This document shows, piece after piece, positions 21,138 to 40,810 of a stretch of DNA of 64,000 nucleotides. Origin of the DNA: a phage. Numbering within the stretch: the stretch's first letter is position 1; the number at the start of each line of letters is the position of its first letter. Location of the stretch: sequence record PZ445440.1; one strand, given 5' to 3'. Position numbers and translations under genes: made by a program. The notes beneath the pieces were generated by a model, which saw only the letters and a list, made by a program, of their open reading frames with translations, ran no database searches and was not told the DNA's origin.

Positions 21138-21244
21138 TTTACCATACTCGTTTCAATAAGATTCACTATGCCGTTTACCATGTTATAAGTAAACATCGGA
21201 TAATTGTATTGTATCACAACGTATACGATAAGCAAAAGTTTCAT
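21134..21244 (-). CDS. small hydrophobic peptide (36 aa)
   Basis: ATG preceded by ATGGAGAACAAA leader directly downstream of promoter element. Confidence 0.3.
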   Translation of the reverse strand: MKLLLIVYVVIQYNYPMFTYNMVNGIVNLIETSMVK

Positions 21245-21261
21245 TTTGTTCTCCATTTGTT

Positions 21262-21303
21262 TTGGTAGGACTACTATAACATAGTCCTACCAAGATGTAA
21301 ACT
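21262..21303 (-). promoter_or_regulatory. early promoter with stem-loop (GTTTAC ... TTATAG inside TAGGACTA/TAGTCCTA inverted repeat)
   Basis: Read in sequence; same family at 31790, 33085, 40767. Confidence 0.5.
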
Positions 21304-31466: not shown

Positions 31467-31772
31467 TTATTTTCCTCGACATTCTTTAATGAAATTTTCT
31501 AGATTGGTAGATTCAATAGCTTTTTTACGAGCTTCTGCGTGTTCTTCTTCGGACAATTTACGTTTATAATTGACCCAGACATTATGGTCTAAACCGGTCG
31601 TGGCATATAATATCAAAGCTCCGACGAATAATAAAAACGGTGATAAAAATATACAACCAGGAACACCATCCATACTGTAAGCCTTTTGTAATACTGCAAC
31701 AGAAAGAGCTGCGTAAAAAAGCGATGCAAATATTGTAAAAAGACCGATTCGGTTGGTTTCGCCTAATTTCAT
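31467..31772 (-). CDS. membrane protein (2 TM; tail ...NFIKECRGK)
   Basis: ORF track; ATG with GAGGAGAA upstream. Confidence 0.65.
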   Translation of the reverse strand: MKLGETNRIGLFTIFASLFYAALSVAVLQKAYSMDGVPGCIFLSPFLLFVGALILYATTGLDHNVWVNYKRKLSEEEHAEARKKAIESTNLENFIKECRGK

Positions 31773-31789
31773 AATATTCTCCTCATGTT

Positions 31790-31832
31790 TTAATAGGACT
31801 ACTATAACATAGCCCTATAATTGTGTAAACAG
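31790..31832 (-). promoter_or_regulatory. early promoter with stem-loop (GTTTACA ... TTATAG in TAGGACTA/TAGCCCTA repeat)
   Basis: Read in sequence. Confidence 0.5.
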
Positions 31833-31842
31833 TTTTGTGAAG

Positions 31843-32799
31843 TTATTTGAAAGGTTTTACCATATGGAAATTTTGTTTGAAACGTTTGACGTAATCGTCG
31901 TGTCCTAAGCTTTGGTACATACTTACTACTTTGCTGTAGTTTTCCCAGGCATACTCACGGAACCAACCAGAGGTGATGCTTGTACAGACCTTTTCCAATG
32001 CCATCATGAAACTGGCTTCAGGGTTAATTTTAAAGTCATTAGGAATTTGAGAACGTTCTAATGCTAGTACACATGATTCTTCGTATACACCGGCCAGTTT
32101 AATCATTTCTGGTAACGATTCGAACTTCTCGCGTGAGGTCATGACTTCAGAACCGTCTTTCATGTAAAACGTATAAGCCGGACGGTCTGTTAGTGCAATG
32201 GCTTCATGAATAGTATCATGGTCATATGTATAGATGTCATCTTTAAAGAACGCACTTTTAGAAGTGTCAAGAACCGGGTGAGCATAGTTCAAAGTTTCTT
32301 TCTGGCGTTTCAGCATAATTTCAGTAAGTTCATCGTTCAGTGTAACACCTTTACCACGAAGATACTGAATATGGTTCATAGTCTTTAAAAAGAATGGATT
32401 ATTTTTCTTGAAACGGTGAGACATCTTAATTGCAAGACATATCTCAGGAGTTGCCCAGTAAAACCCGGTCAAACGGTCTTTAGTCAAATTTTTCTTGGCG
32501 TATTTTAAAAGGTCATAAGAAGACGTGAAATCTTCAGGAGTGAGTTCACCGACTAGTTCACGGACATTAGTGATTGCCGGAACAATATACGCTTCAAAAT
32601 GAGTTTCGCGTCCATTATGGAAGCATTTGAAAACTTGGACATCAGGGTTATCTTGGTGGACATATACACCCATCATTTGATTTTTGAATGCATTCCAAGA
32701 ACATTGGTCCGCAATAAAGTCCCAATCACTATTTTTGATAGCGCTAGAATCAATAAGACCGTGATAGTGAAGTGCACGAGAACCAATAACTAACAACAT
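31843..32799 (-). CDS. hypothetical protein with nucleotidyltransferase-like N-terminal motif (318 aa)
   Basis: IGSRALHYHGLIDSSAIKNSDWDF resembles the GS...D.D signature; ATG with GAGGAAAA upstream. Confidence 0.7.
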   Translation of the reverse strand: MLLVIGSRALHYHGLIDSSAIKNSDWDFIADQCSWNAFKNQMMGVYVHQDNPDVQVFKCFHNGRETHFEAYIVPAITNVRELVGELTPEDFTSSYDLLKYAKKNLTKDRLTGFYWATPEICLAIKMSHRFKKNNPFFLKTMNHIQYLRGKGVTLNDELTEIMLKRQKETLNYAHPVLDTSKSAFFKDDIYTYDHDTIHEAIALTDRPAYTFYMKDGSEVMTSREKFESLPEMIKLAGVYEESCVLALERSQIPNDFKINPEASFMMALEKVCTSITSGWFREYAWENYSKVVSMYQSLGHDDYVKRFKQNFHMVKPFK

Positions 32800-32827
32800 A
32801 ATATTTTCCTCGGATTAATTCATTAAC

Positions 32828-33067
32828 TTAAATTTCACGACATGCGATATCATATTCATCCCAGAGGTCATCATGTGAAGCCTCTACCAATGGAACGATT
32901 GTACCATTTATGTCTTCATTATAAGGGCAAATTGTACAGTGCGCATCTTCGAATCGGATGCCTTTGTGTTCAGATTTTTTATAACGCATATCGAATATCT
33001 TTGCAAACTTTTCACGAGTAATGGTTTTACCAACCACTTTGGTTCCGATACTTTCGTAATAAATCAT
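32828..33067 (-). CDS. hypothetical protein (79 aa, Cys/His-containing)
   Basis: ORF track 32828..33079; second ATG in ATGGAGAACAAAATG leader. Confidence 0.6.
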   Translation of the reverse strand: MIYYESIGTKVVGKTITREKFAKIFDMRYKKSEHKGIRFEDAHCTICPYNEDINGTIVPLVEASHDDLWDEYDIACREI

Positions 33068-33129
33068 TTTGTTCTCCATTTGTTTTGATAGGACTACTAT
33101 AACATAGCCCTATCTTGTTGTAAACTGTT

Positions 33130-33327
33130 TTAGCAAGAATAACTAGATGATACCCAGCCTTGAACAGTGATACTATTGTGGGATAATGAGATCGCGTCCT
33201 GGAGATTCAGACCTGCGTTATCTTCAATCCATAATGTAACTTCTTCGCGTTCTTCTGTTGCAATTTGGAACAGGTTTTCTAGAGCAGCTACTGCGGTACG
33301 TACAGCACAATCTAATTCACGAGACAT
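33130..33327 (-). CDS. small acidic protein, paralog family member (C-terminus GWVSSSYSC)
   Basis: ORF track; AAGGAAA upstream. Confidence 0.6.
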   Translation of the reverse strand: MSRELDCAVRTAVAALENLFQIATEEREEVTLWIEDNAGLNLQDAISLSHNSITVQGWVSSSYSC

Positions 33328-33336
33328 ATGGTTTCC

Positions 33337-33609
33337 TTAGCAAGTGTGAGAAGATGCAACCCAACCGCCATCTTCAAGGCTCAGGTTGTAGTCGTATTGG
33401 TAAACGTCAGCCCATTCAGCATAGCCGTTTTTTGTACAACGTTCAAGATCGGCTTTAAGATGTCCGGGTGAATGATAGGTTCCACCCATACCATAAGCTG
33501 GATACAAGTCGAATGTTGTGTTTTGTTTATCAGCAATTTCTTTGGCAGCCTCAATAGCTGCATAGATTTTTGCTACAGCTTCGGCCAGTTCGGTTTGTTC
33601 TTTAGACAT
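33337..33609 (-). CDS. small acidic protein, paralog family member (C-terminus GGWVASSHTC)
   Basis: ORF track; AAGGAA upstream. Confidence 0.6.
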   Translation of the reverse strand: MSKEQTELAEAVAKIYAAIEAAKEIADKQNTTFDLYPAYGMGGTYHSPGHLKADLERCTKNGYAEWADVYQYDYNLSLEDGGWVASSHTC

Positions 33610-33618
33610 AATGATTCC

Positions 33619-33924
33619 TTAGCACAACGCAGAAGACGAAACCCAAGCACCTTCAGTAATAACGTAACCATTACCTTCACGCTTAACATCACCACCATTA
33701 TTTTCAATTTCATCTTTCATCCACTGGGATACGATTTCACCCTTAGGATAATAAGTACGTCCGCTACCATAATCACCTACAGAAAATGATACGGCATATT
33801 GGTCTGCGATCTTTGTTGCTTCTTCTTCGATACGTTCAGCTTGATTCAGAAGTTTATAAATTGCATCTGAAGCGGATTTGGCATCATTAAACTCTGGTAC
33901 TTTAATTTCAATAATCTTACTCAT
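33619..33924 (-). CDS. small acidic protein, paralog family member (C-terminus GAWVSSSALC)
   Basis: ORF track; ATGA overlap with upstream gene. Confidence 0.6.
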   Translation of the reverse strand: MSKIIEIKVPEFNDAKSASDAIYKLLNQAERIEEEATKIADQYAVSFSVGDYGSGRTYYPKGEIVSQWMKDEIENNGGDVKREGNGYVITEGAWVSSSALC

Positions 33925-34280
33925 TTTCTACATTCCTTAATAAAGTTTTCGATTGTTTCATTTTCACGTTTAGCTAGAAGTTCATTATAACTAATCATTT
34001 GAGAAGCGTAAACCTTTTTATTTTTCTTGTTATGGTTTATAAAATCGTAGTAAAAATAGACTACAGTACAAAATGATGCGATGGATGCAAAGGCTTGGGT
34101 ATACCGTAAGTCCTGCCATTGGTCTGTGAATCCACCGGTATTCCCTATAAATCCTAACACAACTCCGTCAATAAGAAATCCAACTAATCCAAAGGCAAAT
34201 CCCATGCCAATACTCATAATAAAAATTAAAATATTCTCACCAAGAGAAGGCCATACGGTTAAGAGTTGAGGCTTTTGCAT
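33921..34280 (-). CDS. membrane protein (tail ...ENFIKECRK)
   Basis: ORF track; hydrophobic helices. Confidence 0.65.
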   Translation of the reverse strand: MQKPQLLTVWPSLGENILIFIMSIGMGFAFGLVGFLIDGVVLGFIGNTGGFTDQWQDLRYTQAFASIASFCTVVYFYYDFINHNKKNKKVYASQMISYNELLAKRENETIENFIKECRK

Positions 34281-34654
34281 CTTATTTCCTTAACGAATTC
34301 CATAGCTTCTTCATATTCATACTTTTTAACAGCTTCATCATACTGAGCTTGGGCTTTTGCGCACTGAACTTTCCACTCGCGAACTCGAGCTCTGTGATGA
34401 CGGCCTTGGTGCCAATATCCTGCCCAATTAATAGGCATTAATAAAAACGGTACAATAAGTGGTGCGACGAACATTAATGAAAACGCTGCATCAGACGATA
34501 TAACTTTATTGGAATCTAAAATAGCTCCTATAATCATAAAGATTAAAAATGCTAAAGCTAAAATAGGGCCAAATAGTACTTCGTTTGGGATTAATTTACG
34601 TTTGTATTCGTATGCCCAGGGCTTAATTGGCATGTACAGGGTTGGCTTTGACAT
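34259..34654 (-). CDS. membrane protein (start uncertain)
   Basis: ORF track 34259..34684 begins with TTG; internal ATGs at 34654 or 34633. Confidence 0.5.
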   Translation of the reverse strand: MSKPTLYMPIKPWAYEYKRKLIPNEVLFGPILALAFLIFMIIGAILDSNKVISSDAAFSLMFVAPLIVPFLLMPINWAGYWHQGRHHRARVREWKVQCAKAQAQYDEAVKKYEYEEAMEFVKEIRCKSLNS

Positions 34655-35225
34655 ATTCTCTACATTCCATAATAAATTGCTCAAGGATTAAATTGTTAGT
34701 GAAATTAGGACTAACAACCATAGTTTCATAAAGCGCATCAATAGCACTTAAAGCATCAACTCTTTTAAGCAAAGGCTTGCCTTCATACATAGTTTCAGAA
34801 TCGACGATTAACGTAAAGTAATATTTTTTATTATCGACTAGAACTTCTGTGTCGATATAAAACATATTAGACCTCAGAAGCTTATCTCTAAAACCATAAT
34901 AATCTTCTGAACGTTCGCTGATATATTCCCATTCAGTGTTTAAACAACAAACAGACCACGTAGGAGCAACGAAATCAGTGAATCTAATATCATGGTCTGC
35001 AACTAGTTTAGCAATAGCTCCGATATCATGAATCATAATACCTGGGGCTAATAAAGATTTTCTGCTATGGCTAGCCGTTTTCTCAGTGGTCTCATAAGAA
35101 GCCGACCAGTACCATTTACGTCCGGTTGCAACATATCGTAATGAATCAACTAAAGACGTAGGTGGATTTACCTTATCTCGGAACTCTTCGAACATTGAGT
35201 CAATATCATTATTTTGGTTTCGCAT
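34623..35225 (-). CDS. hypothetical protein (200 aa; tail ...QFIMECREYV)
   Basis: ORF track 34623..35246; ATG 35225 with AGGAG upstream. Confidence 0.65.
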   Translation of the reverse strand: MRNQNNDIDSMFEEFRDKVNPPTSLVDSLRYVATGRKWYWSASYETTEKTASHSRKSLLAPGIMIHDIGAIAKLVADHDIRFTDFVAPTWSVCCLNTEWEYISERSEDYYGFRDKLLRSNMFYIDTEVLVDNKKYYFTLIVDSETMYEGKPLLKRVDALSAIDALYETMVVSPNFTNNLILEQFIMECREYVKANPVHAN

Positions 35226-35945: not shown

Positions 35946-36166
35946 TTAATCAAATTGACATAAAACTTGGCGTCTTCCGGGTGCATGCCTTCACAGTATT
36001 CTTCAACCATGAACTTCTTAACAGCTTCATAAGGACCACTCAGATTAAGCTCAGTTGTCCAGAACTTGGAATCTTGGACTGAATCGATACGAACTTCAGG
36101 GTGACGGTTGCGAATAACTTCTTCGGTATATTCATAATCAACGACATCAATACTAACTTTAGCCAT
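35939..36166 (-). CDS. hypothetical protein (75 aa)
   Basis: ORF track; ATG with AGAGGAAAA upstream. Confidence 0.6.
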   Translation of the reverse strand: MAKVSIDVVDYEYTEEVIRNRHPEVRIDSVQDSKFWTTELNLSGPYEAVKKFMVEEYCEGMHPEDAKFYVNLIKK

Positions 36167-36212
36167 TTTGTTTTCCTCTTGATTTGATGTGATTACTATA
36201 ACATAAACTTAC

Positions 36213-36377
36213 TTAGATGTAAATTATTTCAACGTCACCTTTAGCGGCTTTATAACCTTCAGCCCAAGATACAACAGAGTTTTTATCTGAGGATTCAAAT
36301 TCAGGCATTGGACTTTCACCAATATTCACACAGTATGTTTCTTCATTTTCATCGAACCAAATAATTAAAGTAGTCAT
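36213..36377 (-). CDS. small hypothetical protein (54 aa)
   Basis: Below track threshold; ATG with GAGGAG upstream and promoter element at 36398..36440. Confidence 0.45.
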   Translation of the reverse strand: MTTLIIWFDENEETYCVNIGESPMPEFESSDKNSVVSWAEGYKAAKGDVEIIYI

Positions 36378-40738: not shown

Positions 40739-40766
40739 TTTATTTCTCCATTTACTCATTTTGTTC

Positions 40767-40810
40767 TGATAGGACTACTATAACATAGTCCTATCAGCAT
40801 GTAAACTACT
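40767..40810 (-). promoter_or_regulatory. early promoter with stem-loop (GTTTAC ... TTATAG in GATAGGACTA/TAGTCCTATC repeat)
   Basis: Read in sequence. Confidence 0.5.

Follow-up and report, generated by a model that had tools for sequence, protein, structure and literature searches.

Several described systems pair a nucleotide-transferring enzyme or another modifying enzyme with small proteins, and they form the background for the locus examined here. This locus lies in a phage DNA stretch of 64,000 nucleotides (sequence record PZ445440.1; the whole stretch is called the window below) and contains three short open reading frames (ORFs), o3, o2, and o1, whose small acidic products share a C-terminal tail and which are located upstream of a gene for a 318-amino-acid (aa) DUF7277-DUF7275 protein, a putative Pol-beta-type nucleotidyltransferase. 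In the type VII toxin-antitoxin system MntA-HepT (MNT-HEPN), a minimal Pol-beta nucleotidyltransferase poly-adenylylates its small partner. The present locus is similar in that a gene with a GS...DxD signature adjoins genes for small partners, and the nucleotidylylation of a side-chain hydroxyl that we propose would be the same in kind. However, the partners found here lack the HEPN Rx4-6H motif (o3 contains no His at all), are acidic alpha/beta proteins with a C-terminal W-x-S-S-S-x-x-C, and number one to four per enzyme, while the enzyme is about 300 aa long with a large conserved DUF7275 domain; moreover, the module is restricted to phages and no sequence similarity to MntA-HepT was detected. 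The pairs GlnD-PII and GlnE-glutamine synthetase offer a second comparison, as a nucleotidyltransferase-fold enzyme acts there on a specific segment or loop of a dedicated small protein. These enzymes are large multidomain bacterial regulators that modify Tyr, and our small proteins have no homology to PII. In the MenA-MenT and AbiEi-AbiEii systems (DUF1814 toxins), too, a small gene is followed by a nucleotidyltransferase gene, and the enzyme has GS...DxD in its N-terminal part and conserved Lys, Arg, and Asp in its C-terminal domain. Contrarily, those enzymes target tRNAs, their antitoxins have no relationship to the small proteins of this locus, and the 318-aa protein gave no match to Pfam AbiEii/DUF1814 even at E ≤ 5.

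Systems that modify the C terminus of a gene-encoded peptide are also comparable in part. In MccA-MccB (microcin C), the enzyme encoded next to the peptide gene attaches a nucleotide to the very last residue of a gene-encoded peptide, although MccB is an E1/ThiF-like adenylating enzyme and not of the Pol-beta type, and its substrate is a heptapeptide ending in Asn. Clusters for ribosomally synthesized and post-translationally modified peptides (RiPPs), such as that of the prochlorosins (ProcA/ProcM), likewise combine several tandem small ORFs with one enzyme and a C-terminal segment rich in Ser and Cys, and the S-x-x-C spacing in the tails could in principle form a thioether ring. In prochlorosins the conservation is reversed, since the tail proteins vary in the body, a predicted folded domain, and keep an invariant C-terminal segment. 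No gene for LanB, LanM, LanKC, YcaO, a radical-SAM protein, a protease, or an exporter was linked to the tail genes; only DUF7277-DUF7275 is universal.

Set against these systems, the three ORFs are members of a widespread, unannotated, and phage-restricted protein family with a dedicated enzyme partner, and not the local tandem duplication of diversifying binders that a preliminary description of the window had suggested. The positions, the head-to-tail order, and the three tail sequences given in that description were all reproduced, and the three ORFs lie on the minus strand (Table 1). An exhaustive profile search returned 567 clusters (50% identity) at E ≤ 1e-3, nearly all of 70–150 aa, and the match always reached the last residue of the protein. 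Motif statistics were taken from 146 proteins (P0059-P0204) among the 150 best-scoring of these clusters, each a 50%-identity representative, with a median length of 86.5 aa and a median isoelectric point (pI) of 4.5. The family is defined by the terminal motif G-W-x-[S/A/P]-S-S-x-x-C-COOH. The motif W-x-[S/A/P]-S-S-x-x-C occurs in 144 of the 146 representatives, and the 136/146 ending in Cys show no variation at W(-7), S(-4), S(-3), and C(0), with S, A, or P at position -5. In 42 of these 136, the acidic linker that precedes the tail holds an additional W-x-[S/E]-S copy (shuffled mean 2.4, maximum 9), which fits a linear recognition or acceptor motif. Among the six-frame ORFs of at least 30 aa in the window, none besides o1, o2, and o3 ends in this motif.

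The family extends well beyond close relatives of the phage in question. Relatives of o3 were found by tblastn in 485 phage records (Escherichia, Aeromonas, Klebsiella, Enterobacter, Pseudomonas, Yersinia, and others), homologs of o2 include proteins on 370-kb phage contigs, and the tail motif was recovered in T4-like genera and far beyond. The small proteins had no meaningful match in Pfam or NCBIfam and no relative in a sequence search of the PDB, and phrog_899 and phrog_4882, the families to which they belong, are phage families of unknown function. A pattern search of bacterial genomes for the small protein confirmed nothing, and full-text literature searches with the ORF names, DUF7275/DUF7277, phrog_899, or motif strings returned nothing relevant. 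The family-wide alignment was too diverse to serve in the locus search. Overall, the tail family is large, essentially phage-restricted, uncharacterized, and composed of small acidic alpha/beta proteins.

It could be argued that the likeness of the tails is a by-product of nucleotide constraints around the ribosome-binding site and start of the next gene. The DNA of the tails is indeed similar, as had been noted before, but this similarity is weak (72.5% over 51 nt, E 0.08) and the matching stretch takes in the stop codon, the Shine-Dalgarno (SD) sequence, and the start of the next gene. Such an effect also exists in the neighborhood, where membrane-protein genes have F-I-K-E-C-R tails over the AAGGA of the next gene. 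However, the tail codons lie upstream of the SD sequence, which starts only with the stop codon that follows Cys, and o1 keeps its tail even though a promoter-like stem-loop cassette, and not a coupled gene, comes next. Across 74 distinct tail DNAs from other phages, all six Ser codons (TCN and AGY) are used at Ser(-4) and Ser(-3), and the terminal Cys is encoded by TGC in 51 and by TGT in 23. Because the Ser and Cys codons are synonymously diverse to this extent, the tail is under protein-level selection, and the motif is retained in hundreds of unrelated phages. An origin in the ribosome-binding site is therefore rejected as hardly credible, and the view that a terminal peptide is conserved is borne out by the codon diversity together with the motif statistics.

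The ends of three membrane-protein ORFs on the minus strand form a separate case. The ORFs 33921-34280, 31467-31772, and 34259-34684 end in NFIKECRK, NFIKECRGK, and VKEIRCK, respectively. In 33921-34280 and 34259-34684, the K-E codons are the AAGGA SD sequence of the next gene, while in 31467-31772 the SD sequence is GAGGA and is made by the R-G codons. This similarity reflects, at least in part, a constraint at the nucleotide level.

Linkage to a single enzyme-like gene was examined from both sides. On the tail side, same-strand ORFs were clustered from 48 loci (43 on viral contigs, located by means of the small protein, and 5 from annotated phage regions), and one other family was shared across phage groups, namely a protein of 279–411 aa that is present in 43/48; in the other five, the locus sequence is cut short. 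On the enzyme side, 80 viral loci were found with the DUF7277-DUF7275 protein alone, and 68 of them carry one to four ORFs with the strict tail, while about six more have variant tails (WDSSTC, WDSSSC, and WYNSSESC). At these 80 loci, tail ORFs account for 134 of 1153 upstream same-strand ORFs, while none is present among the 945 downstream ORFs or the 1424 ORFs of the opposite strand. The gap between the tail and enzyme genes ranges from an overlap to 1.6 kb, and the genes abut in many non-T4 phages. The enzymes of the 80 loci form 27 clusters at 70% identity, and the combination is found in Tevenvirinae, Twarogvirinae (Acinetobacter), Otagovirus (Pseudomonas), rV5-like phages, jumbo phages of 350–370 kb, and unclassified phages of 60–120 kb. 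Among 185,579 species genomes of bacteria and archaea, six contigs of metagenome-assembled genomes were the sole carriers of the enzyme, and five of these contigs have tail ORFs upstream. An 83-aa ORF that intervenes between the tail genes and the enzyme gene in the window is present in 14 of the 48 loci and, being almost confined to T4-like loci (13/14), is not part of the universal module. It is very probable that one to four tail proteins followed by the DUF7277-DUF7275 enzyme constitute a conserved functional two-part phage module, and the linkage points to an enzyme-plus-partner module that has gone undescribed in many phages. This tight link to the gene at 31843-32799 in diverse phages speaks against a stand-alone family of binders or inhibitors, and it shifts the likeliest function of the small proteins to that of an enzyme partner or substrate.

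The 318-aa protein matches DUF7277 (E 6.7e-27) and DUF7275 (E 3.8e-79) in Pfam. Its N-terminal domain has a GS...DxD...E signature with the spacing of Pol-beta-type nucleotidyltransferases and conforms to the pattern hG[GS] x9-20 DxD followed by a third acidic residue. The residues G6-S7, D25-x-D27, and E69 are conserved in 41–42 of 43 homologs, and G6, S7, D25, and D27, though not E69, are invariant in 16/16 diverse homologs. About 25 invariant polar residues are found in the C-terminal domain, and the invariant polar residues include K125, H128, R129, K139, T140, R165, H194, D195, H198, E240, E241, E248, R249, K270, and R281. As far as can be judged from sequence, this conserved polar pattern indicates an enzyme. 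In GenBank, some homologs are labeled 'putative nucleotidyltransferase' and one is labeled 'putative antibiotic resistance protein'.

The three small proteins are not equally related to each other. The pair o2 and o3 shares 30% identity over 73 aa and the motifs A..IAD, F.F, and Y-G-x-G-x-T-Y-Y, a second Trp, and the tail; both match phrog_899 (E 4.8e-19 and 1.3e-22, respectively, in the C-terminal 75–90 positions of the 221-position profile). By these alignments, they are true tandem paralogs. In contrast, o1 matches phrog_4882 over its full length (E 7.7e-37), and in profile-profile comparison by hhalign only its last 13–16 residues align with the o2/o3 family (probability 47%–85%). In the alignment of the o1 family, the N-terminal helix, Cys7, and the tail are invariant, and the overall plan of N-terminal helix, strands, and tail resembles that of the o2/o3 family, as judged from the predicted structures of o1 and o3. 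The suggestion of three tandem paralogs therefore holds for o2 and o3, while o1 shares the tail only; homology over the whole domain (helix, F-x-F strand, and Y-G-x-G-x-T-Y-Y loop) is evident in o2 and o3 and could not be demonstrated for o1.

The paralog types, including o3-like, o2-like, o1-like, and a fourth type ending in FWFSSSMSC that occurs in Dhakavirus and is absent from this window, are conserved across Mosigvirus, Dhakavirus, and Kanagawavirus, and they keep the same order where all are present. The ratio of nonsynonymous to synonymous substitution rates (dN/dS), taken between orthologs as synonymous sites between the paralogs are saturated at 30% identity, is 0–0.35 and denotes purifying selection. 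Since types and order are kept across T4-like genera and orthologs evolve under such values, the copies stem from an old duplication and have been conserved since, which does not support the idea of a diversifying family. In RB69 itself (NC_004928 69737-70040), the o3 ortholog is split into ORF138c and ORF139c, two pieces that are joined by tblastn, and the 71-aa product of the split ortholog lacks the tail. This split is either a frameshift, and thereby the natural loss of one paralog, or a sequencing error.

Structure prediction with AlphaFold2 (AF2) gave a confident fold for o3 (mean predicted local distance difference test, pLDDT, 88.7), in which a helix at residues 15–43 is packed on a small beta sheet and the tail forms a strand (residues 93–96) and one helical turn. 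The model of o1 has a pLDDT of 79.7 with the tail at low confidence. The N-terminal helical part that had been proposed for these proteins is seen as a helix in the AF2 models. A Foldseek search returned no match in the PDB at E ≤ 1e-3, and only uncharacterized members of the tail family were returned from BFVD.

Given these observations, we hypothesize that the small proteins are substrates of the DUF7277-DUF7275 enzyme, and we assign this reading a probability of about 0.4. The small proteins would dock on the enzyme by their invariant tail, which would also be the acceptor, and the enzyme would transfer a nucleotide to a tail serine hydroxyl or act in another way on the Ser/Cys terminus. 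With their differing bodies, the one to four paralogs would then yield several distinct modified proteins, or adaptors, that act on host targets during infection. This substrate model is favored because the tail offers three hydroxyls, a thiol, and a free carboxylate behind a Trp anchor, because the motif is sometimes repeated, and because the tail is the sole feature common to otherwise unrelated bodies such as that of o1. The exact chemistry, nucleotidylylation of a tail serine, is a more tentative proposal than the substrate role itself. A further variant, which we consider a long shot, is that O-nucleotidylylation by the enzyme activates a tail serine and the terminal Cys or another nucleophile then reacts, in a phage-borne, RiPP-like maturation that has no described precedent and is directed against host targets. 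One route could pass through dehydroalanine, formed by elimination, to an S-x-x-C thioether ring, and the products might be cyclized or nucleotide-tagged C-terminal 'warheads' on several small scaffold proteins.

Several points weigh against the substrate reading. Known Pol-beta-fold protein nucleotidyltransferases modify mostly Tyr and not Ser. The nucleotidyltransferase assignment itself is putative and is based on a short motif and third-party annotation; the 318-aa protein found no match in the PDB as a single sequence or as a profile, no NTP_transf Pfam family was matched even at E ≤ 5, and hhalign comparison with kanamycin nucleotidyltransferase and ANT(2'') gave a non-significant probability of 0.2%, with the DxD in register with that of ANT(2''). 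In the o3 model, the tail is located inside the sheet (pLDDT about 83) and is not a free peptide, and thus the tail may be structural. The matches of the profile search are biased toward the tail, as the query profile itself contains it, although full invariance at pairwise identities of 50% or less is still striking. In the window, a promoter/terminator cassette and the 83-aa ORF intervene between the two halves of the module, so that the two need not be co-transcribed and their co-regulation would be looser than in other phages. Finally, some enzyme relatives are without tail ORFs, namely those of Stenotrophomonas phage Ps15, the viral locus L070, the L090 group, phage KVP40, and actinophages.

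The main rival is that the small proteins regulate the enzyme, as antitoxin-like inhibitors or as activators, and are not its substrates; one to four partners would then check or target a potentially toxic nucleotidyltransferase, in the manner of the nucleotidyltransferase-based toxin-antitoxin pairs MenA-MenT, AbiEi-AbiEii, and MntA-HepT. Small acidic genes that precede a larger enzyme gene in the same orientation, in strict linkage, are what this model would predict, acidity is typical of antitoxins, and the predicted folding of the tail into the domain agrees with it as well. It leaves unexplained why an exposed motif with three Ser and a terminal Cys should be invariant amid a varying body and why it should be repeated internally. 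Up to four different paralogs per enzyme would be unusual for antitoxins, no known toxin or antitoxin family was detected, and the genes are early genes of lytic phages and not a stability module. We regard regulation as unlikely, although it is the strongest competitor of the substrate model. The view taken in the preliminary description, that of binders or inhibitors, appears rather improbable; each small protein would then be free-standing and act on a host protein (e.g., as an anti-defense protein or DNA mimic), with the tail as a structural cap or warhead and the enzyme as a functionally unrelated neighbor. The proteins are small, acidic (median pI 4.5), expressed early, and phage-restricted, their genes lie in the hyperplastic region between e.2 and e.3, and the bodies differ between paralogs, all of which would suit such binders. 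However, phage groups with no other neighborhood gene in common still keep the linkage to the enzyme, for which synteny alone is insufficient, and the polarity is strict, with the tail genes always upstream on the same strand. Purifying, and not diversifying, selection on the orthologs is likewise at odds with free-standing binders.

A role centered on the terminal Cys is very improbable in our estimate. With a C-terminal Cys arm like that of DsrC/TusE and SoxY, the small proteins would carry a thiol, persulfide, or metal, or they would oligomerize through their helices so that a metal or cluster is held by several terminal Cys. The last residue is invariably Cys, type C proteins such as o1 have a second invariant Cys at position 7, there are one to four copies per phage, and the long amphipathic N-terminal helix could drive oligomerization. 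Yet no enzyme of sulfur transfer or cluster assembly is linked, the Trp and two Ser, which are just as invariant, find no explanation, and no similarity to DsrC, TusE, or SoxY exists in sequence or fold. Two labels were also considered and set aside. The 'sulfurtransferase' label on the e.4-like membrane-protein gene (Shigella phage JK45, L002 4460-4855, which equals window 34259-34684) has no Pfam support. Membership in the DNA-mimic anti-restriction proteins (Ocr, ArdA, and Arn) is defined by similarity in sequence or fold, which the small proteins do not show, and acidity alone does not define it.

In T4-like and many other large lytic phages, small early genes of unknown function number in the hundreds, and few of them come with a testable hypothesis. 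Three anonymous ORFs have become members of a sharply defined family with an invariant eight-residue C-terminal motif, a presence in hundreds of phage genomes, and a fixed enzyme partner. If the enzyme modifies the tail, this would be a new phage protein-modification system and probably a new way to take over the host or evade its immunity. Even otherwise, the family would still be among the larger phage protein families without a Pfam model or a structural relative.

With respect to the locus itself, positions 32800-34300 of the window match Escherichia phage ChristianSchoenbein (MZ501056) at 100% identity and many Mosigvirus (RB69-like) phages at about 98%, and the phage of this window is a Mosigvirus. 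In annotated relatives, the counterparts of the tail genes are RB69ORF139c to ORF136c, which lie between the e.3-like and e.2-like genes and are labeled hypothetical. The description of o1, o2, and o3 as small acidic proteins from translationally linked genes is supported by pI values of 4.2–4.7 and by spacers of 9 nt each between o3 and o2 and between o2 and o1, in which TAAGGAA supplies an AAGGA SD sequence that starts at the upstream stop codon. The start of o3 and the stop of the upstream e.3-like gene overlap as ATGA. The three ORFs are best explained as early or middle genes that this Mosigvirus phage expresses.

Table 1. Positions of the tail genes, their signals, and associated features in the window.
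Feature	Position	Strand	Description	Family or remark
o3	33619..33924	-	101 aa, acidic, type A (DYGSGRTYYP ... GAWVSSSALC)	phrog_899
o2	33337..33609	-	90 aa, acidic, type B (YGMGGTYHSP ... GGWVASSHTC)	phrog_899
o1	33130..33327	-	65 aa, acidic, type C (MSRELDCAVRTA ... GWVSSSYSC)	phrog_4882
o3 tail codons	33622..33648	-	A-W-V-S-S-S-A-L-C
o2 tail codons	33340..33366	-	G-W-V-A-S-S-H-T-C
o1 tail codons	33133..33159	-	G-W-V-S-S-S-Y-S-C
o3 stop and o2 SD	33610..33621	-	TAAGGAATCATT, then ATG	SD starts at the stop codon, 3' of the Cys codon
o2 stop and o1 SD	33328..33339	-	TAAGGAAACCAT, then ATG
DUF7277 + DUF7275 protein	31843..32799	-	318 aa, putative Pol-beta-type nucleotidyltransferase	330 nt downstream of the o1 stop
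83-aa ORF	32828..33079	-	unknown function, contains H-C-T-I-C-P; between the tail genes and the enzyme gene	phrog_3723
Promoter-like site	33984..34012	-	TTTACG-17-TATAAT; inside the e.3-like gene, upstream of o3	T4-type middle promoter in a related phage record
Promoter-like site	33096..33124	-	TTTACA-17-TATAGT; right after the o1 stop	in a repeated stem-loop cassette

Enzyme relatives without neighboring W-x-S-S-S-x-x-C proteins show two further features. In four viral contigs (L090, L091, L093, and L117), no tail ORF is found upstream and the otherwise conserved Trp279 of the enzyme is replaced by Arg (SGRFR in place of SGWFR); this replacement and the loss of the partner may be correlated changes. 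Streptomyces phages, Gordonia phages, and Vibrio phage KVP40 encode shorter enzyme relatives (about 250 aa) that lack such neighbors. The small ORFs that adjoin the shorter relatives share G-x-R-Y-F-[RK]-K/T ... Y-x-S ... G-G ... D-G (L130 3846-4010, L131 3875-4360, and L132 2360-2656), and they may represent an alternative partner family.

The promoter-like site downstream of o1 heads a transcription unit containing the 83-aa ORF and the enzyme gene, and in phage SA79RD a terminator is annotated at the equivalent place. The site belongs to an intergenic cassette of about 65 nt that is repeated at least five times in the window with 76%–90% identity (33064-33131, ~21241-21303, 31769-31836, 36164-36229, and 40760-40807). 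The cassette contains a stem-loop and the promoter-like TTTACA-17-TATAGT (33124..33096 and 31829..31801, minus strand), and it appears to resemble the 'promoter-early stem-loop' cassettes of T4-type hyperplastic regions.

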